Below, piece after piece: positions 327-12,080 of a DNA stretch of 15,377 nt. A program made the position numbers and the translations under genes. The stretch's first letter is position 1. Each line of letters starts with the position of its first letter. Source of the stretch: a virus (taxonomy: Duplodnaviria > Heunggongvirae > Uroviricota > Caudoviricetes); the IMG/VR virus record IMGVR_UViG_2713896899_000015, one strand, 5' to 3'. The notes under the pieces are model-generated. The model had not been told where the DNA came from. It saw only the letters and a list, made by a program, of their open reading frames with translations, and did no database searches.

Positions 327-455
327 CAGCGCAACGCATTTTTTTAATTTCGCGGGTATAAAAATTTGACGGGGCGGATAGTTCCATAAGTAATGGATTG
401 CAGGAATTTCGATCCCCCTCCTGAATGCAATTTTTCGTATATATATACAAAACAG

Positions 456-612
456 TGCGGGTTATGCGGGTTAGCGGGTTATCTTCGCGTGCTAAGTATT
501 TTTTATACTTTAATATCAATACGTTAAAAAATTACGCGTTTAAATATTAGCCAAAACGTAACCCGCAAGACATTCAAAATAACCCGCAAACACCCCCCAA
601 ATAACCCGCAAA
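456..612. repeat. Iteron cluster A (GCGGGTTAT-type), inverted copy of the origin-type cluster; candidate second ori or P4 crr-like site
   Basis: Three contiguous forward iterons tgcgggttat/gcgggtta/gcgggttat at 456-482, an AT-rich core at 483-558, then three reverse iterons taacccgca at 559-567, 579-588 and 601-610 spaced about 21 bp apart. Mirror image of cluster 9771-9919. Confidence 0.6.
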
Positions 613-1030
613 CGCATCAAGAAAGTGGGTCCAGTGATGCCATCGAACGGCTGAATCGGGTAACGTTCTGTTGCCGGGTTGTTGTTTGCGGGTCAGCAAT
701 ACTGACGCGCAAAGTTAGCCGTACGTGGCGCTGCGTCCACCAGCTACGCCGGAATGGGGTATTCCGTTTCAATGGAACAGGTATGACAAACATGATCGCA
801 CCTTCTCCCGAAAACGGGTTTTCCTGTTTCGGGAAAATGGACACATAAGCGGCGCGGCGATTTTCACCATTCAGAATCTGGAGGGTGAGTTTTCCAGTTT
901 TCCCCAATGGGGGATTCTGGAACAATCAACAGGTTACTCCTTACCAGCAAAAAAGCACATCAACTGTAACGGAAATCGTTATGGTTGCTGGTGGGCCAAA
1001 TCATCATTACGGTGATACAGCCATGTAGAC

Positions 1031-1193
1031 GTTCCGGTCTCCTCAAATTGAGTTTCTCGAAAATATCAGCGGGTTAGCGATTAAGCTGGCGAGTAATTAA
1101 ACTGCGAAAATTTCGTAGTTTGTGACTATCTGAAAGATAGTCGGTTGTTCCGGTCTCAGCCGTTGGCTGTTTCCGAAAATATCAGCAGGTTAG
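1031..1193. repeat. Two imperfect ~47-bp direct repeats (1031-1077 and 1147-1193) flanking a perfect palindrome gactatct-gaa-agatagtc (1124-1142)
   Basis: Both units start gttccggtctc and end tttc(t/c)cgaaaatatcagc(g/a)ggttag. The palindrome has 8-bp arms and a 3-nt loop. No coding potential. Confidence 0.7.
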
Positions 1194-1280
1194 GCCAAAG
1201 CCCGAAAAAGTGCTTTGTAAAAACTGAATACCGTAACTTAAACTTACGGTAATCGTTCTGCCTCGGTGCTCGTCTCTTCC

Positions 1281-1435
1281 GTGGTCATTTCGACCATGCA
1301 CCACACGAAAAGGGGGAGTGTTTATCACCTCCCCTTCGTGGTGATTTCCACCATGCAGCCATCGCACCGCCACGCAAAAGGGATTTACCACTACCAGCTA
1401 TATCCCTCAAATCCACCAATGGTGGAAAAGCCCAC
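1281..1435. repeat. Composite repeat region: direct repeats gtggtcatttcgaccatgca (1281-1300) and gtggtgatttccaccatgca (1338-1357) flanking an imperfect ~15-bp-arm palindrome (1302-1342), plus copy 2 of the 23-bp element (1413-1435)
   Basis: Read directly. Repeated GGTG/CACC half-sites throughout. Candidate cis site (packaging cos, or regulator binding). Confidence 0.65.
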
Positions 1436-1543
1436 AGCACGGCCGCATAAAACCATTACGATGACTCAGGACGCAAAACCACGTTTACGTTGTTTTGCAC
1501 TGAACCAGAATGCTGCTCGTCTTTGTCTCGATGTCCGTACGTA

Positions 1544-1837
1544 TTACGTACGCAGCCGCTCCGGTTTTTTCCACTGGTAAGTCTTTTTCTCGCTCTCCCG
1601 ATACATCTCCACGCGGCGACGATATGACAACAACTCCAGAACTCTGATCCGTATGTCGCGCATATCCACGCCGTTAATCTCGATACCGTCACGGCGCATC
1701 ACCTCAGCCACCACACGCGCGTAATTTTCGGCTATCACGCTGTCCGGCTGCGTGGCCTCCTGTTTGTCTGCTGTCTGGCTGGCTCCGGTAACACGGCGGA
1801 TTATTTTTAGTAGTTCGGTTTCGCTCATTCTCGTCAT
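1544..1837 (-). CDS. Hypothetical protein (97 aa) translationally coupled to the end of terL
   Basis: ATG at 1835-1837 overlaps the terL stop (ATGA). Last gene of the packaging operon. No recognisable motif. Stop codon sits in the centre of palindrome cgtacgta-t-tacgtacg (1536-1552). Confidence 0.5.
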   Translation of the reverse strand: MTRMSETELLKIIRRVTGASQTADKQEATQPDSVIAENYARVVAEVMRRDGIEINGVDMRDIRIRVLELLSYRRRVEMYRESEKKTYQWKKPERLRT

Positions 1838-3495
1838 ACCCCATCAAACGCCGCAAGCCGCTCTTTGTGGCTGTCGCTCATATCGAATGCAAAGTCCTCG
1901 TGCTCTGCCTGGAATGTGCCAAACGCCATCAGCGCCGCAACGCTCGGGTCTATCTTGTTGGATGATTTTTTCTTGTTCGGCTTGATATTGGCGTTCGCGT
2001 CACTCTGCATCACAACATTACTCATTGACCAGGCCAGCACCGGATCACCACGATGAACAATCACCTTCCGGTTAACAAAAACTTCGAACGATTTCGCCGC
2101 CGGACTGAAACGAAGGTATGTTTGCGGGAACGGCTCCACCTCAAATCCTGCCCCCTGTAGCTGCGTTCTCAGGTGCGTGGCGTTCCATGTATCGAAACCC
2201 ACCAGCCTGATATTGAAATTCTCTGCATCCGCCATGATGTCATCACGGATACGGTCATAATCAATGCAGTCACCCGGTGTTGTGCGTATCCAGCCCGCCT
2301 TTGCCCACTGGCGATAGATGGCGCGGTTTTTATTGGCAGGGTTCTGTAGCTGAAATTCCGGCAGATAGTGACGGGAAACCAGCATAATCTTTTTACCGAC
2401 CGGAAAGGCATAGCACACGCTGGAAATATCGCTGGTTGATGATAAGTCCAGCCCCGCGTAGCACTCCTGCCCGTATAAATCCGCCTCCGCGAACGTTCCG
2501 GCGCACTCCGCCCATGCACCGTTACCCATCCACGGCGTAGCCCCCTGACACCAGATATTGAATCGCTTGGTGAGCATTTCCACCCACTGCGACGGAATAC
2601 CCCGCGCTTTCTGGATGGTTGAGGCCAGTTTTTCACGATCGACGGAAACATCGATATTGGGATTCGCCTTTATCCACATCGCCGGATCGTCAACCTCGCT
2701 TTCATCATCCAGCTCGTAAATCAGCACGAACATGGATTCGTTCACCTCTTCACCATCCAGTATCTGGCAGCAATAGTCGTAGTGTTGTTTACAGGCTGAA
2801 ACAACGTTGCTCCCCGATGTGGTGATGGCAAATAACAGCCCCTCCGGGCGCGCCCCCATTCCCAGCTCAAGCGCGGAATAAACCCCGTTGTCAGGATGCA
2901 GGTGATATTCATCCACAATGGCGAGACTCGGGTTTGTCCCCTCAATGGTTGCCGCTTTTGCTGCCAGTGGCTTTAACAGGCTGTTGGTTTTCGGGTGTAT
3001 CACCTTGTGCGCCTGAATATTTACCCGCTTTCGTAACGGTCGGGATAAAAGGCACATCTGACGCGCATCATCAAACACGATCCGCGCCTGATCACGACTC
3101 ACGGCGGCGGTGTAAATATCCTGCTGCCCGTTTTCCATAACCAGAAACCAGTTAGCCAGGATAGCGGCGACCGTGGATTTGGCATTTTTTCGCGGTACTT
3201 CAATGAATGCGCTGGTGTATTTGCGCCGTCCGGTGGCCTTAACCTTAAAGCCCAGGATGCACGCAAAGGCGAACTGCTGCCACGGCTCCAGTTCAATGGG
3301 GCTACCGCGCATTGCACCTTTTACGTGCGGGCACACCCTGGAAAAGGCAATAAACCGCTCCACGACCTCCGGATCGAACGTGTAAAGGGGGTTTTCAAGG
3401 TCAGAAAAATACCGTTTAACGGCCTGTTTCAGTCGTTTACAGGCCGTAATTTTGCCGTTTTTTACGCCTTCTGCGTACTCATGCCAGGCGGTCAA
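1834..3495 (-). CDS. terL: Terminase large subunit (Terminase_1-type ATPase/nuclease), 553 aa
   Basis: Size and N-terminal ATPase region with P-loop-like KNAKST and a DEYH Walker-B-like motif. Follows terS with a 17-nt overlap. Apparent TTG start at 3493-3495 preceded by AGAGGA (Shine-Dalgarno). Confidence 0.88.
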   Translation of the reverse strand: MTAWHEYAEGVKNGKITACKRLKQAVKRYFSDLENPLYTFDPEVVERFIAFSRVCPHVKGAMRGSPIELEPWQQFAFACILGFKVKATGRRKYTSAFIEVPRKNAKSTVAAILANWFLVMENGQQDIYTAAVSRDQARIVFDDARQMCLLSRPLRKRVNIQAHKVIHPKTNSLLKPLAAKAATIEGTNPSLAIVDEYHLHPDNGVYSALELGMGARPEGLLFAITTSGSNVVSACKQHYDYCCQILDGEEVNESMFVLIYELDDESEVDDPAMWIKANPNIDVSVDREKLASTIQKARGIPSQWVEMLTKRFNIWCQGATPWMGNGAWAECAGTFAEADLYGQECYAGLDLSSTSDISSVCYAFPVGKKIMLVSRHYLPEFQLQNPANKNRAIYRQWAKAGWIRTTPGDCIDYDRIRDDIMADAENFNIRLVGFDTWNATHLRTQLQGAGFEVEPFPQTYLRFSPAAKSFEVFVNRKVIVHRGDPVLAWSMSNVVMQSDANANIKPNKKKSSNKIDPSVAALMAFGTFQAEHEDFAFDMSDSHKERLAAFDGV

Positions 3496-3835
3496 GCTCG
3501 TCCTCTTCCTCTGTTTCCGGTGGATTTCTGCGTCGGCTTACCGGGTCAAAACCCAGCAAAGAAGCCATTTTGATCATTATTCTTTCTGCGTCAGCCTTTG
3601 CGCTCAGGGCGGGGTTTCTGCTCTCGCTGCCCTGACTGTTAACAATGCTGAAGCCGCGCGTCGCAAGGTCTTCGACGGCTTTGCGGTATATGGAGTAGTT
3701 AACGCAATACAGTTCCAGATTGCTCCAGTCGGCGGGGGTAAGGTCTTCCCGCCCGGAAAGCTGGCGCGATTTTTCCTTCCACTGCCTGACCGCGATTTCA
3801 TCCAGGTAAGCGGGGGCTTTTGGTGGTCTTGCCAT
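3479..3835 (-). CDS. terS: Terminase small subunit, P27 family (118 aa from MARPPKAP...)
   Basis: N-terminus MARPPKAPAYL, internal LELYC..Y, and C-terminal NP....A.....K...LGFDP.SR then acidic tail, as in phage P27-family TerS. The ORF-track 5' extension to 3976 is judged non-coding. ATG at 3833-3835. Confidence 0.8.
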   Translation of the reverse strand: MARPPKAPAYLDEIAVRQWKEKSRQLSGREDLTPADWSNLELYCVNYSIYRKAVEDLATRGFSIVNSQGSESRNPALSAKADAERIMIKMASLLGFDPVSRRRNPPETEEEDELDRLA

Positions 3836-3954
3836 GTTCTTTTTTCGCCCAATTATTTTCAAAAAAATTCCCGTGCACAAAAATTTGAGGAGGCGGTCGG
3901 TGTCCGGCAGGGGCGGTTTCGTCCTGAAAACCTCCCCCACCCCCTCTGACGGCC

Positions 3955-4140
3955 TCACCAGCGATTGCGAAAACATTCCATGACCTCGCGGTCACGGTCG
4001 GTTAATCGCTTCGCTGTGGTGCGTTCTGTGCGCTCTGTCCTGTTGGCTTTGTGCCCTGTCTCCTGTGTCTTCCATAAGTCACGCTGCCTTATCAGTCCAC
4101 GTATCAGCCTGTTTTGCTCCTGTTCAGTCATCATCGCCAT
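3955..4140 (-). CDS. Possible small basic protein (61 aa) between HNH and terS; uncertain
   Basis: ATG at 4138-4140 overlaps the last 15 nt of the HNH gene in another frame. Weak Shine-Dalgarno, Arg/Thr/Glu-rich. Could instead be non-coding (this region is a cos-site candidate). Confidence 0.3.
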   Translation of the reverse strand: MAMMTEQEQNRLIRGLIRQRDLWKTQETGHKANRTERTERTTAKRLTDRDREVMECFRNRW

Positions 4141-4564
4141 ACATCCAGTCGTTACGATGTGCCGCCCGTTCTTCCTGCTCGCGATACATGCCCGCCTTAC
4201 GGTTCGCTTTCGTGGCTGGATCTTCCCGTGTCGTCTTACGGTTGTGGCACGTCTGGCACAATGCCTGGTGGTTCCACTCAGGCCAGAAGAGAACATCACC
4301 GCCGCCATTGATGGGAATGATGTGATCCACCACAAGAGCTGGCGTATAAATACCCTTAGCCAGACAACGCACGCATAACGGATTTTTTTTCAGGTACATG
4401 GCGCGGTATTTGTCCCACAGTCGGGAATACCCACGTGCGCGGCGGTGTCCCCGTCTGGCATCCTCTGCACGCCATGCAGCCCGCCTGTGCTCTTCACACT
4501 TGCCGGACTTCACGCGCTTATTACAGCCCGGCTCAGTGCATCGCCTTAATGGTTGCCATGGCAT
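4124..4564 (-). CDS. HNH endonuclease (terminase-associated), 146 aa
   Basis: Cys-rich N-terminus (C..C..C), then VDHIIP...WNHQALCQTCHNRKT, an HNH motif. Sits immediately upstream of terS-terL as in HNH-dependent cos packaging modules. TGATG coupling to the upstream gene. Confidence 0.9.
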   Translation of the reverse strand: MPWQPLRRCTEPGCNKRVKSGKCEEHRRAAWRAEDARRGHRRARGYSRLWDKYRAMYLKKNPLCVRCLAKGIYTPALVVDHIIPINGGGDVLFWPEWNHQALCQTCHNRKTTREDPATKANRKAGMYREQEERAAHRNDWMYGDDD

Positions 4565-4860
4565 CAGTACACCCCCACATCACGATAAACCGACCAGAGC
4601 GCGGAAATCGTCAGGGGAATTTCTTTTGTATCGGTATCGCCAAGCGTTGTCCGGTACTCGTACAGTTGCGAGATGTACATCAGGCAACCAATTTTTATTG
4701 CAGGGGTAAATTCCAGGCCGTCATCAAAACGCCTGCCAATATGCTTCTGGCATACCTCCAGCGCCGCGCTTATGTATGCCTGAATCAGTGTGTCTTCTGT
4801 GTTACCATCTATGCGGCAGTGAAGTTTGGCCTCTTCCAGGGTTATTTTTTCTGCTGTCAT
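4564..4860 (-). CDS. Head-tail connector protein, gp6-like (98 aa)
   Basis: N-terminus ITLEEAKLHCRIDGNTEDTLIQAYISAALEVCQ is characteristic of the gp6-like connector family. ATGA overlap with the upstream gene. Confidence 0.7.
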   Translation of the reverse strand: MTAEKITLEEAKLHCRIDGNTEDTLIQAYISAALEVCQKHIGRRFDDGLEFTPAIKIGCLMYISQLYEYRTTLGDTDTKEIPLTISALWSVYRDVGVY

Positions 4861-5195
4861 TTTTCTGTACCCACCTTTGCCAGAATTTCCAGCCGGGTTC
4901 TTTTCGCATCAGGTAAGGGGATCCCGATGATATTAAGCGTGCTCCCGGCAAAAGCGCCGGTAAGCACTTTCAGGCGACTGGCGGCGGATATGTCGCCACG
5001 ATAGCGAACCCATACCCGAATCGTTGCAGGTGCGGTTTCTGCGCCTGCGGTCAGTAATTCCCGTCCGCTGATCCCCTTGACCTCTGCCCAGATGGTTTCC
5101 CCTTCCGTCCATATCTGCTGGATCGCACCTGACGGCAGGCGCTGTGTGGTAAATGTCATAATCGTCACCCGGTCCCGCATATTTCCGGCTATCAT
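4857..5195 (-). CDS. Head-closure / head-tail adaptor protein (Phage_H_T_join-like), 112 aa
   Basis: Pattern RDRVTI...IWAEVKGISGRE...IRVWVRYRGDI...LNIIGI matches the head-closure family. ATGA overlap with the portal stop. Confidence 0.7.
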   Translation of the reverse strand: MIAGNMRDRVTIMTFTTQRLPSGAIQQIWTEGETIWAEVKGISGRELLTAGAETAPATIRVWVRYRGDISAASRLKVLTGAFAGSTLNIIGIPLPDAKRTRLEILAKVGTEK

Positions 5196-6415
5196 TCGTC
5201 ACCGCCCTTACTGTTCTTGCTGATTGTCACTTCCTGCTTCCATGCCTGGCTGAACTCGTCGCCACCTTCACGCGGCGGCATTCCCTCACGCTCACGGGCT
5301 TCGTTCGGATTCATGATCCCGTTCTTAATTCCTTTCTCATACGTGGCGTAACGTTCGGTAGGTGTGGCGCGCAGTAAATCGGCTGAATCAAACTCAACCA
5401 GATAACGGGTACCAGGTACGGGAGAAGCCACCAGCAAAGCAGCCTTGATTTGCTGTTCGAAGTTCGCCAGCCATGGGCGCATTGTCATGGTCAGAAACGC
5501 GCGGCTTGCCTCGCTGAAATTGCTGTAGGTGCTATTGCTGTATTCCTGCAGAAAAATAGGCGATACGTTGAACATCCGGGCGATGTCTTCAATGGAGAAG
5601 CGACGGGAGGCCAGCCATTCCGCATCCTGGTTACTCATTCCCAGTTGCTTGTAATCCATGCCCCCTTCAAGGATTGGCGTTTTTCCGGCATTTTTCGCCC
5701 CCTTGTAGCGTTCCAGAGCATCCAATGCCTGTTTACCTTTCACGCCGTCCAGCCATTCGCCTGACGTGATAATCCCTGCCGCCATCATGCCATCTTTCAT
5801 AATGCTGGCTCCGTGGCGCTGTTGAGCAAGGCCAAGCCCAAGTGCCTCACGGCAAATCGTGACAGGGGAGCGCCCCAGAAAGCCATCATCCGAGGCATAG
5901 CGGAGATGCAGAACTTCTTCCTGTAAATACGTGCGCACCGTTCCTGTATAGGGTTCGGTGATGGTATAGCGGTATTTGTGTGCGCCTGTGCGTTCCGGTA
6001 CAACACAACCCGGTGCATAAGGATGAAGTGATTTGGGCTGCCCGTCCCGCCCCCACTCAATAACCGCATAGGCGTTACCGTTCAGCAGGCAGTGACGCAT
6101 CATTGTGCGTTTAAACTGGTAAGGTGTCTGGCACGAATTAGGCTGCTCATTCAGCAGAATATCTACCGGATGACTGTCCAGCCATTCCCGCGCCTCCCTG
6201 CCCTTGTCATTACGTACCAGATACAGATAACAAGGCATCGTGGCCACCGCCTCAGCGATGACAGAAACCGCGTTCATCACTGCAGGCAATGATTCAGCCG
6301 TTCCGGCAGAAACATATTCTCCGGATCCGGTATTCGGTACACCGGACAGCGCCAGAAAATCATCAATGGACAGGTTACGCAGATCGCTTTTTTTACGACT
6401 AAAAGGCCACCACAT
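5192..6415 (-). CDS. Portal protein, HK97 family (407 aa from MWWPF...)
   Basis: Length and composition typical of HK97-type portals. ATG at 6413-6415 lies 1 nt after the protease stop. The ORF-track extension to 6505 uses a TTG and overlaps the protease gene, so is judged unlikely. Confidence 0.85.
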   Translation of the reverse strand: MWWPFSRKKSDLRNLSIDDFLALSGVPNTGSGEYVSAGTAESLPAVMNAVSVIAEAVATMPCYLYLVRNDKGREAREWLDSHPVDILLNEQPNSCQTPYQFKRTMMRHCLLNGNAYAVIEWGRDGQPKSLHPYAPGCVVPERTGAHKYRYTITEPYTGTVRTYLQEEVLHLRYASDDGFLGRSPVTICREALGLGLAQQRHGASIMKDGMMAAGIITSGEWLDGVKGKQALDALERYKGAKNAGKTPILEGGMDYKQLGMSNQDAEWLASRRFSIEDIARMFNVSPIFLQEYSNSTYSNFSEASRAFLTMTMRPWLANFEQQIKAALLVASPVPGTRYLVEFDSADLLRATPTERYATYEKGIKNGIMNPNEAREREGMPPREGGDEFSQAWKQEVTISKNSKGGDE

Positions 6416-6416
6416 A

Positions 6417-6977
6417 TCACAACCCCGCCAGTTCAGCCCAGCGATGACGATTATTTCCTGCCGGGCGTAATTCAGGGTGCTGTGCAAACAACGAACGGTG
6501 GGCAATCTCCACGCCGGATTCGGGATAAGCAGGCATCGACGTTATCGTGATTTCACGGAGTTCTGCGGCAGTTACGGTACGCAGATACGGTTTTTGCGCG
6601 ATACTCCACTCCTCGCATAATGCGCGAAAACCAAAGCTCATTCCTGTAATGTCGCCACGCTCCACCAGCGTAAGCACATCTTTTCCAAGCTGGGTATCCG
6701 GCGGTGTCAGCTCAAAACGTAACCCGGTGTTATCCTCAGTCAGTACCAGAGTGCCGGATTTGGTGCGCCCCAGCAGTTGGGTATAGTCATGCTCATACAG
6801 GCAGCGCACATCATTACCCGCCGCCAGATAGTCAGCAAAAGCCCCCGGCGTGAACTGTTCGCGGAATTCGTCCCAGATAATTTCTGAAAGGCTGTTCCAG
6901 CGAACGGCATAACCCACCAGTTTTTTATCGCTGGCGGTCAGTTCAGATGTGCGGATTTCAAAATCGGTGTTTTTCAT
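6417..6977 (-). CDS. Prohead protease, HK97 family (186 aa)
   Basis: Motifs GYAVRWNS...GxxxxLxEDxxGL...GMSFGF are characteristic of HK97-family prohead maturation proteases. GGAG Shine-Dalgarno 8 nt upstream of the ATG. Confidence 0.85.
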   Translation of the reverse strand: MKNTDFEIRTSELTASDKKLVGYAVRWNSLSEIIWDEFREQFTPGAFADYLAAGNDVRCLYEHDYTQLLGRTKSGTLVLTEDNTGLRFELTPPDTQLGKDVLTLVERGDITGMSFGFRALCEEWSIAQKPYLRTVTAAELREITITSMPAYPESGVEIAHRSLFAQHPELRPAGNNRHRWAELAGL

Positions 6978-6997
6978 CGGTGTACTCCATAAAGCTG

Positions 6998-7019
6998 AAA
7001 AAGGAGGCCGCAGCCTCCT
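6998..7019 (-). terminator. Intrinsic terminator-like hairpin (partial terminator / mRNA stabiliser) just after the capsid gene
   Basis: On the minus strand: AGGAGGC-tgcg-GCCTCCT followed by TTTT. 7-bp stem, 4-nt loop, U-tract. Lies between the capsid stop (7032) and the protease start (6977). Confidence 0.35.
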
Positions 7020-7031
7020 CCTTACTCATGA

Positions 7032-8201
7032 CTAGCCAGCTTTCATTTCCAGAATTTTGATGGCGTTTGAATCCACCACACCACCGCCCAGATATTTATC
7101 CGTGTGGACCTTGTAGAATCCGGGTTCAGTAATGTTGTCCGGTCGGGTGCGAATCCCTGTTACATGATCAACGATGAAATAACCACGACTGAAATCGCCA
7201 ACCGCTAGCGGTGCTTTTCCTGCGCCGATGTCCGGCATGGACTCCAGGCAGTAAACAGGACGACCAAGCAACATATCCGGCGCACCTTCTTTAAGGCTGT
7301 CGCGCCAGATATAATCGCCGTTCTCATTTTTCAGCTTCTGTAGTGTCCCTGCCGTGCCCGAGTTCATCACCCAGACGGCATTTTTGCGGTATTTCGCTTT
7401 CAGCTTGTAGAGAATGTCGATCAGTTCGTCCGCTGTAATGGCGGTTCCACTTGCCGCTACCATTTTTTCAATGGTGCCAAAAGCGCGGGTTTTGTCACTG
7501 GTCGCCGCACGGGTGTAAGCCATGAATCCTTTCGGCTTGCCGTTACCGTCGCCATTAACAAAATCATCCTCTTCGGTGCTGGCGAACGTGTCGGCAATTT
7601 CGGAGGATAACCAGCCCAGAATATCCACCTCTGAAAAATCCAAGATTTCCTGCGTGGTTTTCGGGTAGGCGTAGATCGGATTCAGCTTGATGGTTACGCG
7701 TTCAATTTTCGGGGTGTTGGTTTCGCTGCGCGCGCTGCCTTCTGTGCCTCTTCCTACAGTTGCGCCGCCAGTGGAAACCAGTTTCTGAAACTCATTTGAT
7801 TTTGCGGTCTTCACGGTCGCGATCACGCGCATAACACTGTCATCCTGTAGCTGGCGCATGACTTCGCGATCAAGCTCAGGAATTACGGTATATCCGCCAT
7901 CCCTGCCGCTGTCAGTGCTGGTGGACAGTGATCGCACATCTCCGGTTACGATATAGTTACGCAATTCATCAGATGATAATTTCTGGATGCCCGTTCCTGG
8001 CTTGCTGCGTTCTTCATCAGCCACAGACTCGAGGCGGGAAATTTCTGTGTCGAGGGAATCGGCTTTTGCACGCAGTTCATCAAACTGTTTGCCCTCGTCA
8101 TCGTTCAGGCTGCGGTTTTCACTGTCGGCTTTTTCCAGCAGGGATCGCATCTGGTTTTTCAGGGCGGTTTTTTGCTGGCGGAGTTCGATTAATTTCTTCA
8201 T
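7032..8201 (-). CDS. Major capsid protein, HK97 fold, with N-terminal coiled-coil delta (scaffold) domain (389 aa)
   Basis: N-terminal ~100 aa is charged and heptad-like (delta domain). C-terminal region GTAGTLQKL...LLGRPV...GDFSRGYFIVD is typical of HK97-family capsid proteins. No separate scaffold gene. Confidence 0.9.
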   Translation of the reverse strand: MKKLIELRQQKTALKNQMRSLLEKADSENRSLNDDEGKQFDELRAKADSLDTEISRLESVADEERSKPGTGIQKLSSDELRNYIVTGDVRSLSTSTDSGRDGGYTVIPELDREVMRQLQDDSVMRVIATVKTAKSNEFQKLVSTGGATVGRGTEGSARSETNTPKIERVTIKLNPIYAYPKTTQEILDFSEVDILGWLSSEIADTFASTEEDDFVNGDGNGKPKGFMAYTRAATSDKTRAFGTIEKMVAASGTAITADELIDILYKLKAKYRKNAVWVMNSGTAGTLQKLKNENGDYIWRDSLKEGAPDMLLGRPVYCLESMPDIGAGKAPLAVGDFSRGYFIVDHVTGIRTRPDNITEPGFYKVHTDKYLGGGVVDSNAIKILEMKAG

Positions 8202-8401
8202 GAAGGTTTTCTCGTATTGGTTAAGATTCAGGACGTGAAACCAACACGGAGGGAGCGCCGCCCGACACTCTCGGCATCTCGCAGATCAACCCGGCATCGC
8301 GCAGGGGGTCAGGCGGCATTGTGGCGGCTCACGTCTGAGTGCCACACGCCAACATATACATAAAAATCAGTATGTAAACATCAGCCAGAATCACCGAACA
8401 A

Positions 8402-8470
8402 CCTGGAACAACCACGAACAAATAATTTACAAAACCTGAAAAAAAGACCTGAAAAAAAATCTAGGCCTTT
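8402..8470. repeat. 3 x 10-bp phased units caccgaacaa / cctggaacaa / ccacgaacaa (8402-8431) plus tandem 13-bp acctgaaaaaaa(g/a) x2 (8445-8470), in the capsid-upstream intergenic gap
   Basis: Near-identical to the array at 201-230 (shared 17-mer ccacgaacaa...). Located in the 275-bp noncoding gap 8202-8476 upstream of the capsid gene. Candidate activator-binding site or late promoter. Confidence 0.7.
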
Positions 8471-8476
8471 ATCGCT

Positions 8477-8725
8477 TTATTGTTTCACTGGATCCCGCAT
8501 TCTGCGTCTTATTTTCCACAGATATTCGATCATCGCTTCCACCTGCTCACGGTTGGTTGCGAAAATTTCCCCGGTCAGTGAGCTGCGCAGAAAATCATGA
8601 TGATCCACAACAAACAACGCATCGGAAGAAAGCAGACGGCGATATTTTTTTGCTGTCGTGGTTTCCAGATCATCAAAACCATGAAACTTTTTATGTTGCT
8701 GAACTTCTTCAAATGTCACTGGCAT
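8477..8725 (-). CDS. Hypothetical protein (82 aa)
   Basis: ATG at 8723-8725 with a GGGGG Shine-Dalgarno 5 nt upstream. Overlaps the ProQ/FinO gene stop by 10 nt. No recognisable motif. Confidence 0.55.
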   Translation of the reverse strand: MPVTFEEVQQHKKFHGFDDLETTTAKKYRRLLSSDALFVVDHHDFLRSSLTGEIFATNREQVEAMIEYLWKIRRRMRDPVKQ

Positions 8726-9246
8726 GTATCCCCCTTTGCTGCCCGGCGCTGGCGCTTGTGCTTCTCATTCAGCGCCATCAGCCGCGTTTCTGCCTCCTGC
8801 TGTTCCTGTGGTGTCACTTCCCCACATGGCTGGCCTTTCAGGTCGTAGCGTACCCCACCAGCTATTAAGGCGCGGTAATAGCGCGGAGACTGCGCATAGG
8901 ATGCCAGCGTCGCACGTAATGCCCCCGGCCCGAATGTCAGCCCCCTGGCGGCGATATCCTGCATCAGGTCGTCGAATATCCCCACCTTAAGCGGCTTCGG
9001 TGCTTCCCGGCTGAATAATTCTGGCCACAATTCAATAAGGCGGTTAACGCGTCTGCGGTTTTTGCGCTGGCGTTTGGTCATATGCCGCCACGCTGTCGCC
9101 CCTGTGGGTTTCTGCTGTGCGTTCTGATTGCCGGGTATCACTTTATGCGCCGATGTGGTTTTATCCTGCTGCTGTGCCGCCTGCGGTATTTTCTGCGGCG
9201 TGCCGTAAATGCCTTTCGGTTTTCGGTTAATGGTCATCTTTGTCAT
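8716..9246 (-). CDS. ProQ/FinO-domain RNA-binding protein (176 aa; alternative start at 9237)
   Basis: C-terminal half KPLKVGIFDDL...LRATLASYAQSPRYYRALIAGGVRYDLKGQPCGEV aligns by eye with E. coli ProQ (RPLKIGIFQDL...LRSALRLYTSSWRYL...RVDLDGNPCGEL). Basic, low-complexity N-terminus. Confidence 0.85.
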   Translation of the reverse strand: MTKMTINRKPKGIYGTPQKIPQAAQQQDKTTSAHKVIPGNQNAQQKPTGATAWRHMTKRQRKNRRRVNRLIELWPELFSREAPKPLKVGIFDDLMQDIAARGLTFGPGALRATLASYAQSPRYYRALIAGGVRYDLKGQPCGEVTPQEQQEAETRLMALNEKHKRQRRAAKGDTCQ

Positions 9247-9282
9247 GCCTTCCCCTGTAATAACTCTGTTCGCTGTTGTGAA

Positions 9283-9708
9283 TTAAAACGGTATGTTGTC
9301 CCCGTACGGATCATCGTGCTGGCCTGTCTGTTGTTTTGCCCTGTTCAGTGCGTCAGTGGCCTGGCCCTGTTGACCTTTTTTGCCGCCCGGTCGCGCCGTT
9401 CGCGCACTGATTACGCTGTCTGCAATAACCTGCCAGCCCTGCCGCGTTTCGCCGTTCTGCCCTGTCCACTGGCTTACCTGCATGTTACCCACCACGCTCA
9501 CCAGTTCGCCTTTGCGGTGTTTTGCCAGTGCGTCGGCCTGTCTGCCAAACGCCAGGACAGATAACCACATCGTCGCCGTTCCGTCATCTGCCTGGCTGCA
9601 CGGCAGGGGAACCGCCATACTCGCCATCGCCATTTGTGTCCCCTTGCTGGTGGTCTTTAACTGCGGGTCAGCCACCAGCCGCCCGTAAGCCGCTATCTGT
9701 GCTGTCAT
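9283..9708 (-). CDS. ssb: Single-stranded DNA-binding protein (SSB), 141 aa
   Basis: OB-fold pattern GRLVADPQL...W.SVLAFGRQA..LAKHRKGELVSVVG.MQVSQWTGQNGETRQ, Gly/Gln-rich linker, and C-terminal acidic tail DDPYGDNIPF (the SSB DIPF signature). Confidence 0.85.
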   Translation of the reverse strand: MTAQIAAYGRLVADPQLKTTSKGTQMAMASMAVPLPCSQADDGTATMWLSVLAFGRQADALAKHRKGELVSVVGNMQVSQWTGQNGETRQGWQVIADSVISARTARPGGKKGQQGQATDALNRAKQQTGQHDDPYGDNIPF

Positions 9709-9770
9709 GCTGTCTGTTCTCCGGTTTTAACGTTGATGGTTACGCTTGTTTACACCCTTACGGTGAAATT

Positions 9771-9919
9771 CTGCGGGTTATAATCGCGCTTTTGCGGGTT
9801 ATAACTGCCGTTTTGCGGGTTATTTTGGGTATTTTGCGGGTTACGATTTTTCTTTCATTCCTTTAATAATCAAATGGATACTGATTTATCCACAGAAATA
9901 ACCCGCATAACCCGCAAAA
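9771..9919. repeat. Iteron-type replication origin (cluster B) immediately downstream of the primase gene
   Basis: Four forward iterons tgcgggtt(at) at 9772, 9793, 9814 and 9835, exactly 21 bp apart. AT-rich core 9845-9896. Two contiguous reverse iterons ataacccgca / taacccgcaaaa at 9897-9919. Sits between primase stop (9945) and ssb start (9708), as in PICI pri-rep-ori. Confidence 0.65.
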
Positions 9920-9944
9920 TTTTCACTCTACACGCGAGAAAAAA

Positions 9945-12080
9945 TTAATCTTCTTCGCTTTCTGGCTGGAACATCAGCACGTAAAAAACATGCTGCTTCC
10001 CCCCAATTTTGCCGAGCGCCTTTTTCTTGTAACGGCGATCGTTACCCGCTTCCAGCATTCCGGCAGCACTCAACGCGCGGGCAAAGTGAGACGGATTAAA
10101 TCCCTGTGCTATCTCACCCTCAAATACATGCGGGAATGTGTAAAAACGGAACTCGTCATCTTCGTTTCTGATACTCCCCTTTCTGTATCCGGCAAGCTCT
10201 TTAATCGGTAAATCACGCTCGTCAGAGTTGGGCCAGGGAAGGTATCTGCTGAATCCGAACGACGCTAAAAAAGCCTCTGCCTGTTCAACCATCTGTTTAA
10301 ACTCCCTGTTACCCGTGCCGAACTCCTTCACCCAGGCATTAAAATTATGCTGTATGGCATCGCGGCATTCCTGCTCATCCCAGCCAGTAACATGACCTGA
10401 AAGCACAAGCGCGGCCTCCAGTATGGCAAATCGCTCCCCCACACGGTGAACCTGTTCGCCGTAGCTCTCCGGTATCAGGTTGCGCCACCGCTCACGGCAT
10501 GTCCTTACCGTGTCCTTTGCCTCCTGCTGGTGTTCTGCCAGCCATTTAACCCACTCACGACCCGCTGCCCCGTGATTTTCTGTCCAGGCATCCTTTAACG
10601 CGTCTGCGTGCGCCTTTCCGGTGCTGTATTCGTGAAATTGTGTGGCTTTTTCCATCGGCACGTTAAGCAGACGGACAAGCTGCCCCGCTTTAATTTTTAT
10701 CCCTTCCGTTTTGAGGAATGTTTCAACGTCCATTTCTCCGGTACTGATTGCCACCGTGCGCCAGTGTTTGATCTCCCTGTTGCCGCCGTCCTTCGCCCCC
10801 TGTAATTTCCCCGAACCGTTAAACAGCGTATAAGCCGACGTGGACACTTCCCGCGCGTTTCCGGCCTGACCTATTTCATCCAGGGGTAACAGCCCGTCAT
10901 TGTGCGCCTCTGCCTCGTTGGCGATGCCTAACGCTGTACCGTACCAGGTCAGCCGTTGCGCGTCCGGCTCTCCCCATAAACTGGATGCGATGTTCTGTGT
11001 GGTGGTTTTCCCTGCCGATGACTGTTCGAAAAGATGTACCCCGAAGCCGTCAGCACCCACCAGCCCGATTAATGGTGCGGATAATGATACCGCCACACCC
11101 AGCATCATGGACGGATTACCACCAGCCAACCGCGCAACGGTATCGCGCCAGCCCTCCGCCGTTCCTGCCACGGAATAACCATTAACAGCGGCAGTTTTTC
11201 CGGTAAACAGGACTGGCTTTTCGCAATCACCAATGACCGAACCGTCCGGCATGATGTACGCGCCAAAATGCCAGCCCGTTGTTGTGCTTAACTGCCATTC
11301 CTCATGGTTTCCGCTTAACTGCATCCAGTCAGCCAGGATAGCCCTGTATTTACCGTTGGTTGTCACATTCAGTCCGTGGTCTTTCAGCAGCCGCCAGCCG
11401 TCACGGTCGCCAATGCCCCCACACGGGATCGCCATTGTGATGACTTCATGGTTTGCTGGTTTTTTCCAGCGCATCACGCGGTAATGCTCTTTGCCGATTG
11501 TCCCCGTTCCCAGTAGTTCAAGCGGGGAACATAACCACGTCTCAGGCCGGATAATTTCGCCTGACTGCTTATCCACTTTTGGCGTTACCCAGAAAACACC
11601 ATCGGCACGGCTTTCAACGCGGGGCTTTAATTCATCATCACCCGGGCTTGTGGTGGTTTTTTTCTTTACCGGAAGTTTAATTACCAGATCTGCAGAAAGA
11701 TTCTGACGCTCAACGTTCAGATAGCGCCGCCAGTTCTCGCATTTCTGACCGTGCATTCCTTCAGGGTAAAAATTCGCATCCTGAATATCTGCCGCCGCCA
11801 GCTTCTGACCGATCTTTTTGGTCTCCACTAAATCCAGTTCTCCGGCCTGGTACAGCCTTACGCGTTTTTTCCCATCCGGAACAATTTTCAGCGCATCAAG
11901 TTCGGCAAGCTGATTTGGCCCAAGCCACACAGGCGGCACATCATCGCCAGATGCGGGGCCGTCCTGCTCCTGCCACTGTTTTGCATGTGCCCACGCATCA
12001 CTACCCGCGAAAATAATTACCTCTGTGTCTTTGTGTTTTATTCCGCGTGGTTGTTTTTTTACGTTCGGTGCCAGTTTCAT
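9945..12080 (-). CDS. Replication initiator, primase/helicase-type (PICI Pri-Rep / P4 alpha-like), 711 aa
   Basis: Large multidomain protein with a P-loop (SSAGKTT) in the central region. Directly upstream of the iteron origin. ATG at 12078-12080 overlaps the preceding gene stop (ATGA). Domain family not verified by search. Confidence 0.75.
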   Translation of the reverse strand: MKLAPNVKKQPRGIKHKDTEVIIFAGSDAWAHAKQWQEQDGPASGDDVPPVWLGPNQLAELDALKIVPDGKKRVRLYQAGELDLVETKKIGQKLAAADIQDANFYPEGMHGQKCENWRRYLNVERQNLSADLVIKLPVKKKTTTSPGDDELKPRVESRADGVFWVTPKVDKQSGEIIRPETWLCSPLELLGTGTIGKEHYRVMRWKKPANHEVITMAIPCGGIGDRDGWRLLKDHGLNVTTNGKYRAILADWMQLSGNHEEWQLSTTTGWHFGAYIMPDGSVIGDCEKPVLFTGKTAAVNGYSVAGTAEGWRDTVARLAGGNPSMMLGVAVSLSAPLIGLVGADGFGVHLFEQSSAGKTTTQNIASSLWGEPDAQRLTWYGTALGIANEAEAHNDGLLPLDEIGQAGNAREVSTSAYTLFNGSGKLQGAKDGGNREIKHWRTVAISTGEMDVETFLKTEGIKIKAGQLVRLLNVPMEKATQFHEYSTGKAHADALKDAWTENHGAAGREWVKWLAEHQQEAKDTVRTCRERWRNLIPESYGEQVHRVGERFAILEAALVLSGHVTGWDEQECRDAIQHNFNAWVKEFGTGNREFKQMVEQAEAFLASFGFSRYLPWPNSDERDLPIKELAGYRKGSIRNEDDEFRFYTFPHVFEGEIAQGFNPSHFARALSAAGMLEAGNDRRYKKKALGKIGGKQHVFYVLMFQPESEED

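Follow-up and report, generated by a model that had tools for sequence, protein, structure and literature searches.

In the pathogenicity islands of Staphylococcus aureus (SaPIs), the Rep protein is a self-loading initiator-helicase whose C-terminal winged-helix domain reads iterons located directly downstream of rep, and a SaPI origin is defined as a central AT-rich region flanked on either side by two or more iterons, in opposite directions (PMC9371898). Phage-inducible chromosomal islands (PICIs) of Gram-negative bacteria have the same origin layout, described as iterons flanking one AT-rich region after rep, and the rep-ori segment of the PICI EcCICFT073 drives plasmid replication, autonomous replication from rep and ori being known for SaPIs as well (PMC6092414). 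Here, we describe a relative of these replicons in a 15,377 nt stretch of viral DNA (IMG/VR record IMGVR_UViG_2713896899_000015), which we call the window and which, judged from its gene content and its relatives, is a capsid-forming PICI (cf-PICI) of ~15.2 kb, a phage satellite of Escherichia coli at the clpS-cspD site. The window carries two iteron clusters 9.3 kb apart: cluster B, behind rep, and cluster A, at the attachment (att) end of the island. Cluster A appears to be the second half of a once contiguous origin, and is most likely a second Rep-binding site that lies at a distance from the first.

The locus resembles the replicons of SaPIbov1, SaPI1 and EcCICFT073 (PMC6092414, PMC9371898) in having a SaPI Rep homologue with the origin 3′ of rep, opposed iterons flanking an AT-rich core, and, as covariation suggests for the window, iteron specificity in the C-terminus of Rep. 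Unlike those origins, the family to which the window belongs has two mirror-image units with two AT-rich cores, and the window has its second unit beside a cos site, at a distance of 9.3 kb. The prototype cf-PICI, EcCIEDL933 (bioRxiv 10.1101/2022.09.08.507074), shares with the window its island type, gene order, Rep family, GCGGGTTA iterons and a cos site upstream of terS (cos1), and the coding regions for the Rep C-terminus are 84% identical. In EcCIEDL933, unlike the window, the two origin units lie next to each other behind rep, and there is neither a unit at the att end nor a second cos site (cos2). A term search of the cf-PICI paper (bioRxiv 10.1101/2022.09.08.507074) returned no use of ‘iteron’ and no description of an origin, and in the searchable PICI literature we found no second iteron cluster, no two-core or split origin, and no fusion of a half-origin with cos.

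The ori and crr sites of satellite phage P4 are reportedly both required in cis. The P4 record (NC_001609) places crr, the ‘cis required region for replication’, at 4291–4590, directly 3′ of the alpha gene and 194 bp from the attP core, and ori at 9086–9809; both carry the type-1 repeat, and each 120 bp crr repeat, rather like a single PICI unit, places an AT stretch between two contiguous iterons and inverted ones. P4 and the window are both small integrative satellites with two clusters of a single 8 bp iteron several kilobases apart, one cluster being directly 3′ of the helicase gene and one lying within 200–260 bp of attP. They differ in that crr is a tandem direct 120 bp duplication 3′ of alpha, with ori as the distant site, whereas the distal site of the window, A, is a single inverted unit, far from rep, that derives from a formerly contiguous origin. 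The best BLASTP match between Rep and P4 alpha had an E value of 0.07, and P4 was absent from the tblastn matches. Homology to ori and crr was rejected because Rep and alpha are not detectably related and the positional roles of the sites are swapped; the likeness is one of design, an analogy rather than homology. An earlier reading of this DNA, made by a model from the letters alone (hereafter the sequence-only reading), had likened the two clusters to ori and crr, and the parallel holds as far as two separated clusters of one iteron, but not for the relation to alpha or for the position and duplication of crr. As a separate observation, the TGTTCAC(C) iterons in E. coli PICI modules L086 (2530–2750), L119 and L126 are identical to the type-1 repeat of P4 ori and crr.

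In the plasmid R6K, the gamma origin activates the alpha and beta origins by initiator-mediated looping. The R6K loci and P1 incA are like the window in that repeats bound by the initiator lie outside the main origin and act over kilobases, an action which for the window would be presumed. They are unlike it in their initiator families and as copy-controlled theta plasmids, and there is no homology.

Over most of its length, the window is 92–95% identical to ~15 kb islands of E. coli chromosomes. The annotated genes of these relatives encode, in order, a tyrosine integrase, an AlpA-type regulator, an Icd-like protein, a DUF4222 protein, a DUF927 protein, a single-stranded DNA-binding protein (SSB), ProQ/FinO or PerC, an HK97-type major capsid protein, prohead protease, portal, head–tail connector, HNH endonuclease, P27-family small terminase and large terminase. 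It is because this gene set matches that of the cf-PICIs (bioRxiv 10.1101/2022.09.08.507074) that we assign the window to them. In the closest annotated relative (L001, 92% identical), the island lies between clpS and yljB/cspD, with a direct repeat at both ends. The left copy of this repeat, the att core ATTAACTACACCATTAACTACACCG, is at 174–198 on the plus strand of the window and sets the left boundary of the island, positions 1–173 being host DNA; the right copy, 24 bp past the int start codon in L001, falls outside the window.

Exact copies of the iteron GCGGGTTA number 13 in the window, where 0.49 would be expected; this count was not attained in any of 200 dinucleotide shuffles, and chance was accordingly rejected. 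On its outer side, cluster A is bordered by the tail of the second origin unit (GTTTTGTATATATATACGAAAAA, minus strand, 431–456), which is 81% AT, contains a (TA)n palindrome and is found in all iteron lineages. The tail is followed by three contiguous plus-strand iterons at 457–481 (GCGGGTTAT GCGGGTTA GCGGGTTAT; exact matches, diversity 0.03), a 77 bp AT-rich core at 482–558, and three phased minus-strand iterons at 559–609, which start at 559, 580 and 602 and are therefore spaced by 21 and 22 bp. Cluster B begins 30 bp downstream of the rep stop codon (9945) and, read from the cargo side, has four phased plus-strand iterons at 9773–9843 (starts 9773, 9794, 9815 and 9836, exactly 21 bp apart), a 55 bp AT-rich core at 9844–9898, and two contiguous minus-strand iterons at 9899–9915 that adjoin the stop codon. 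The AT content is 72.7% in each core and 49.4% in the window as a whole. Each cluster has the SaPI/PICI anatomy of at least two opposed iterons per side of an AT-rich core (four and two in B, three and three in A), and in both the phased iterons face inward to the cargo and the contiguous iterons outward. The mirror-image arrangement reported by the sequence-only reading was thereby borne out at the positions it gave, as were the 21 bp spacing (exact in B, 21 and 22 bp in A) and the bracketing of the ssb, ProQ/FinO, capsid and terminase genes by the inverted pair. The alignment it had proposed, of A with the reverse complement of B, runs through the iteron blocks, the longest inverted pair being 553–590 with 9812–9849 (38 nt, 87%), and breaks down in the cores. 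After excision to a circle of ~15.2 kb, A and B would be separated by 9.3 kb along one arc and 5.9 kb along the other.

The rep gene (9945–12080, minus strand) encodes a 711 aa initiator-helicase of the DUF927, SaPI Rep/Cch-like kind. DUF927 alone was matched in Pfam (residues 171–438, E = 1.1e-45). In phmmer searches of the PDB, the product matched 8tch, ‘Pathogenicity island protein’ (E = 3.8e-15, residues 220–604), and the SCCmec helicase Cch, 5dgk (E = 0.0025), and NCBIfam gave a weak match to Cch1. By these similarities, the product is a homologue of SaPI Rep. Domain searches found no primase catalytic domain in it, ‘primase’ being a PHROG label only; the earlier placement of an origin directly downstream of a primase gene was right in its position, while the name given to the gene is not borne out by the domains of its product, which point to a DUF927 initiator-helicase. 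Because a SaPI Rep homologue lies upstream and the published layout and position are matched, cluster B reads as an ordinary PICI origin of canonical place and anatomy.

The nature of cluster A is seen from the relatives of the island. We inspected the DNA after rep in 80 IMG/VR loci with Rep homologues 59–99% identical to that of the window. In the great majority of them, and across ~60 relatives that cover at least six iteron types and include EcCIEDL933, two mirror-image units lie together after rep in one dyad-symmetric block of 265–330 bp. The block starts with two contiguous iterons, AT core 1, and four to five opposite iterons phased at 21 bp; after ~45 bp come two phased iterons in the first orientation, AT core 2, and two to four opposite contiguous iterons, and it ends in a GTTTTGTATATATAC-AAAAA tail and the ribosome-binding site of the next gene. 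Each unit reads, from the outside in, as an outer palindrome with an A-tract, two to four contiguous iterons, an AT-rich core, and two to five iterons phased at 21 bp, with the phased sets of the two units facing each other across the dyad centre. The pattern ‘aabbbbbaabb(b)’ or a close variant (L042 and L050 have the same dyad) was found in 19 GCGGGTTA loci, 4/4 GTGGGTTA loci, 27/28 GAACCAAC/TGAACCA loci and the CGTGGTTC locus. Exact 7-mer counting recovered it in two of the seven GGGACAAC loci and not in the TGGGATAA locus (L077), inner iterons being degenerate; the same layout is visible in L077 when the sequence is read directly. In unit 2 of every iteron lineage, the contiguous iterons are followed by the GTTTTGTATATATAC tail.

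Window positions 428–591, covering core 2 and the tail, are collinear in blastn with L014 4164–4335 (83.7%) and L039 2078–2233 (80.9%), in both of which the A-like unit directly adjoins unit 1. Because of this collinearity with the second unit of contiguous origins, A is identified by sequence as orthologous to unit 2, the second half of the origin in this family, and not as a decayed or duplicate copy of B. In the window, unit 1 alone follows rep and unit 2 is at 431–609, in place of two units within ~330 bp. The inverted orientation of A would then be the dyad symmetry of the ancestral origin, and the cargo would lie at the old dyad centre, since the phased iterons of both clusters point inward and the contiguous iterons outward. 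This revises the sequence-only reading in two respects. The core of A, taken there for a diverged copy of the core of B, is orthologous to core 2 of the bipartite origin; and A, taken for a second site, is a cluster of the same iteron inside the island, but as the second half of the origin rather than as an extra site. Its suggested survey of related islands gave a divided answer: both units are retained in most islands and are contiguous after rep in most, and they are split in the window lineage. One locus outside the GCGGGTTA lineage, L078 (IMG/VR 3300028977_000034, GAACCAAC lineage), appears to have unit 1 only (aabbbb), with no second cluster within 10 kb; it is the sole such locus, and could be a half-origin island of natural occurrence or the product of another, independent split.

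An alignment of Rep proteins across six iteron types showed that iteron type tracks the last ~110 residues of Rep and nothing else. Covariation thus points to residues 601–711, encoded at 9945–10280 on the minus strand, as the predicted iteron-recognition domain. The Rep of L017, for example, is 90–100% identical to that of the window over residues 1–600, and 50%, 30% and 9% identical in successive blocks of 601–711; its iterons are GGGACAAC. The converse is seen in L024 and L037, where identity is 26–64% in the N-terminus and 92–100% over 601–700, and the iterons are GCGGGTTA. The iteron switch occurs jointly in both origin units, in every lineage. Joint switching and the tracking of the C-terminus make it likely that the Rep C-terminal domain binds both units, for which covariation is strong but indirect support, and they are equally strong indirect evidence that unit 2 is under selection in the contiguous state. 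AlphaFold2, run on the C-terminal 151 residues as a single sequence without an alignment, gave a pLDDT of 37.5. At its other end, Rep has an N-terminal domain of ~145 aa (residues 1–145, window 11646–12080) that is common, at 45–95% identity, to otherwise unrelated PICI replication proteins: DUF927 proteins, a ‘DNA primase family’ of 584–604 aa, and a RepA-family helicase (L002, L086, L098 and L122–L126). This domain does not follow iteron type and was therefore ruled out as the iteron reader; docking to the host or the helper is one possible role.

The junction specific to the split arrangement, B directly next to ssb, was present in 59/5,426 complete E. coli genomes (at least 80% coverage), of which collection 252 genomes have the coding region for the cognate Rep C-terminus and 183 have the A unit. 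Split islands are integrated at clpS-cspD, yifB, thiM-rcnR and tRNA-Ile, beside yqeG, beside cvrA, and within the terL gene of a prophage. A, at the att end, is 7.7–10.8 kb from B, and the intervening cargo is either the capsid/terminase module or three large ORFs (L037/L097, L127 and L128). The left flank of A varies, in that the unit begins 70 bp past the terL stop codon, follows 930 bp of non-coding DNA, or lies between 118 nt repeats; the A unit and ~110 bp on its att side are constant. As the split is seen in the GCGGGTTA lineage only, and always with the same flank, it most likely arose once. A distal A accompanied the half-origin B in 28/28 islands with a visible att end, at no fewer than seven insertion sites and with at least two kinds of cargo, a count that includes four loci chosen through the B|ssb junction alone; ten further loci end too early for a distal A to be judged. 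L034, L036 and L037 seemed at first to be candidates for B-only status; L034 and L036 stop short of the point where this could be judged, and for L037 it was rejected, A being 10.7 kb downstream on its contig (L097). If B were viable without A, B-only islands should exist, because the A+cos module recombines freely into other backbones. In one split-origin cf-PICI, L133 (E. coli NRZ96606, NZ_OZ501612.1), the island sits inside the large-terminase gene of a P27-type prophage and is helper-embedded.

Cluster A adjoins a predicted cos site of the phiP27/HK97 type. This site, cos2 (TTTGACGGGGCGG..., 341–425, plus strand), has its terS side toward att and its HNH side toward A, and ends ~5 bp from the A tail. 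Positions 341–377 match the annotated cos-site region of phiP27 at 97.3% over 37 bp (E = 4e-8), the alignment extends to ~425, and positions 348–377 match the genome end of phage ST64B. Among the 16 att-end A units examined, 15 have a cos-like motif 97–103 bp from the contiguous iterons of A; in L133, no cos2 was found beside the A unit within three mismatches. A diverged cos-like site, cos1 (3860–3945, plus strand), occupies the canonical position between HNH and terS in the same orientation, 3.5 kb from cos2. The two share a direct repeat (346–377 and 3865–3896, 78%), with GAGGAGGCGG in cos1 against GACGGGGCGG in cos2. All 14 scanned islands with this packaging module have cos1 upstream of terS. 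Only cos1 is present in the cf-PICIs with contiguous origins (EcCIEDL933, L039, L042, L054 and L065) and in L002, and only cos2 in non-capsid PICIs that have an att-end A; window-type islands have both. The island might therefore be packaged by two routes, its own terminase acting at cos1 and the terminase of a phiP27-like helper at cos2. EcCICFT073 (PMC6092414, PMC6739421) is likewise a PICI with two cos-like sites, one of which matches the helper-phage cos; its cos sites are lambda-type and depend on Rpp and TerS, whereas both sites of the window are of the phiP27/HK97 type and one is fused to a half-origin.

Together, A and cos2 form a terminal module of ~300 bp that also occurs in islands whose Rep uses other iterons, and we refer to its A units there as orphans. 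When matches to the A unit in E. coli were sampled down the identity ranking (n=8), one was a contiguous origin, two were cognate split islands and five were orphans. These five have a primase-family protein with GGTAGACA iterons (L122), a rep pseudogene (L123), a DUF927 Rep with GGGACAAC iterons (L124), a RepA-family helicase with AGTGGGGA repeats (L125), and a primase-family protein with CTGTTCAC iterons (L126). Among the IMG/VR loci, orphans were found in L086 and L119, with TGTTCAC iterons, and in L098, with GGTAGAGG iterons. No GCGGGTTA-type Rep C-terminal domain was found in the orphan islands by tblastn, which shows that A can persist without its Rep. A strict covariation of A with the Rep module, first apparent from L002 compared with L001 and L003, was overturned by these eight orphans.

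Selection on A was gauged from 31 distinct att-end modules, in which the iterons and the tail show nucleotide diversities of 0.0185 and 0.013, against 0.166 in the AT core, 0.08–0.21 in the spacers between iterons, 0.218 in cos2 and 0.30 in the left flank; the values for the three phased iterons are 0.000, 0.000 and 0.016. A is better conserved in its iterons and tail than is the adjacent cos2, a cos site that many of these islands need. In cognate islands, 4/480 iteron positions are off consensus, compared with 128/1040 in core and spacers. The corresponding counts for orphans are 9/336 (eight of the nine from a single one-iteron deletion) and 53/728, and 46/48 orphan iterons are intact, a pattern that could be inherited from a cognate past.

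These results fit a model in which the origin has been split and its distal half is still bound by Rep, to which we give an even balance of probability. Unit 1 (B) would have stayed behind rep while unit 2 (A) moved to the att-proximal end beside cos2, so that the cargo (ssb, ProQ, capsid and terminase) came to lie at the former dyad centre. The Rep C-terminal domain would bind the GCGGGTTA iterons of both units, the AT cores would melt, and the self-loading helicase would be loaded, with A acting either as a second loading site or as a cis partner of B that is drawn near by Rep–Rep contacts, as for P4 ori and crr. What we observed is the anatomy, that A is homologous to unit 2, that iterons covary with the C-terminus of Rep, that iterons are more strongly conserved than their surroundings, and that no B occurs without A; Rep binding, melting, cooperation of the units and a requirement for A are inferences. 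The evolutionary success of the arrangement would mean that origin halves need not adjoin. Its main rival, which we hold to be a good deal less probable but still substantial, is that A is a functionless relic that hitch-hikes, through its ~5 bp linkage, with cos2, a site needed for packaging by the island or by the classical PICIs with the same terminal module, B alone being sufficient. A single SaPI-type unit has the anatomy published as sufficient for an origin (PMC6092414, PMC9371898), L078 has unit 1 only, the cf-PICI L002 uses the same att site as the window with neither A nor cos2, and A+cos2 behaves as one module of fixed spacing that accompanies at least six unrelated replication modules encoding no GCGGGTTA reader. 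A mere passenger, however, would hardly have iterons and a tail with a diversity of 0.013–0.019 next to a cos2 at 0.218; unit 2 is kept in every lineage, its iteron changing with Rep, and so is not dispensable when contiguous; and none of the 28 assessable islands has B without A.

Several points nevertheless count against a functional split origin. An intact A+cos2 accompanies a non-cognate replication module in eight islands, with at least six unrelated modules among them, and the persistence of A without its Rep fits hitch-hiking with cos2; part of the persistence of A may indeed be due to cos linkage rather than to replication. That L078 apparently has unit 1 only suggests that one unit may suffice. 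That B never occurs without A would also follow if the split arose once and time has been limited, and the islands, at 3–15% divergence, share ancestry, so that nominal P values overstate their independence. Lastly, two one-directional, single-helicase units firing on one circle would leave one arc unreplicated, and the split should therefore be viable only if each unit is self-sufficient or if just one of them fires.

The remaining alternatives keep a role for A or remove it from the island altogether. Auxiliary iteron clusters of iteron plasmids, such as P1 incA, titrate or handcuff their initiator. Rep-bound A might in the same manner limit initiation at B, and its iterons are cognate, conserved and outside the origin proper. 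We consider such negative control unlikely: A retains a full origin anatomy, with its AT core, its (TA)n tail and both sets of iterons, which a pure binding sink would not need, an A-type unit is part of the origin itself in relatives, and restraint of copy number would be of no obvious value to satellites that burst-replicate after induction. We think it just as doubtful that the fusion of A with cos couples Rep loading or local replication to cos recognition or concatemer formation, or, in a variant included in the same estimate, that a co-resident Rep of the GCGGGTTA type replicates the orphan islands in trans. The A–cos2 spacing is fixed at 97–103 bp in 15/16 att-end modules, a translocating terminase would, from the orientation, cross A right before cos2, and the 46 intact iterons among 48 in orphans suit the trans variant; yet phiP27 has no such iterons beside its own cos, the cf-PICIs with contiguous origins have cos1 with no origin unit adjoining it, and recent recombination is enough to explain the intact orphan iterons. 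The sequence-only reading had itself allowed that A might belong to an adjacent tandem island, and the inverted pair might also be a substrate for inversion of the cargo. The region round A is indeed mosaic, a 23 nt repeat bracketing cos2+A and, in L001, 118 nt repeats bracketing A. Both ideas are nonetheless very improbable and were rejected: the att core at 174–198 lies outside A, which is within the att-bounded island; A travels with the island to at least six other sites (yifB, thiM-rcnR, tRNA-Ile, yqeG, cvrA and prophage terL); and no inverted isomers occur among 29 orientable A-bearing loci, in which terL, capsid or rep is on the same strand relative to A. A broader idea, speculative and improbable, is that a half-origin with cos is a portable cis element with a function of its own. 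Half-origin B might depend on it through Rep looping across 6–9 kb of cargo, which would make the arrangement a natural, evolutionarily stable split of the dyad-symmetric origin of a self-loading helicase; it might tie Rep loading to cos for concatemer formation or terminase pausing; or a co-resident GCGGGTTA-type Rep might replicate or compete with orphans, one satellite exploiting the initiator of another.

Set against earlier descriptions of PICI origins as one block after rep, the results indicate a two-core, mirror-image origin in a large Gram-negative Rep family, with iterons that track the Rep C-terminus. They also indicate that the origin halves have come to lie 8–11 kb apart, with the cargo where the dyad centre used to be, in a lineage found in ~1% of complete E. 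coli genomes, and that the displaced half moves between islands with a cos site. Split islands offer a natural test of whether origin halves work at a distance. If the distal half is needed, they would provide a separation-of-function system for paired-site replication by a SaPI-type helicase, including looping of the sort ascribed to P4 alpha. If it is not, they would be an example of the hitch-hiking of cis sites in satellite mosaicism, and iteron clusters alone would not be markers of a functional origin. In either case, PICI origin prediction and incompatibility typing should cover both island ends.

As well as the origin, other features of the window and its relatives were recorded. Searches of the window for tRNA, tmRNA and Rfam families found none. 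The first cargo gene between B and A is ssb (9283–9708, minus strand; Pfam SSB, E = 2.9e-16), and the ProQ/FinO gene, also between the clusters, is at 8716–9246. In islands with three large ORFs as cargo, the ORFs are of ~560–925 aa; the L037 copies have no Pfam match, and one L128 ORF is labelled in RefSeq as a transglycosylase SLT domain protein. This cargo could be a defence or accessory system that replaces the capsid module. The idea that a promoter in the (TA)n tail of A drives int across attP after circularization was dropped as speculation, no sigma-70-like site being found in 1–1900 or 9200–10200.

Three copies of GAACAA, phased at 10 bp, lie beside the att core at 205–230, and the set recurs at 8396–8421, ~195 bp upstream of the capsid start. 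The two-repeat pattern has five matches in the window against 0.13 expected, and a similar set is found near the right att copy in L001. These repeats are candidate binding sites for an AlpA-type excisionase/activator, which would link excision to late-gene activation. A non-coding stretch of 927 bp (617–1543), downstream of the terL-adjacent ORF, has a related stretch in L120 (2975–3400). It is built of units that combine a hairpin (CCTCAAATTGAGG) with GAAAATATCA(A/G)C(C/G)GGTTA; the lone 13th copy of GCGGGTTA, at 1069, belongs to this repeat family and to neither iteron cluster. Rfam gave no match to the units, ~5 copies of which are found at the left end of EcCIEDL933. An exact 23 nt direct repeat with the palindrome CCACCAATGGTGG (304–326 and 1413–1435) flanks cos2, A and the non-coding stretch, and in L001 118 nt direct repeats (97%; 3624–3741 and 4058–4175) with a different palindrome flank A. 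Both repeats may be footprints of the recombination that placed the A+cos2 module.

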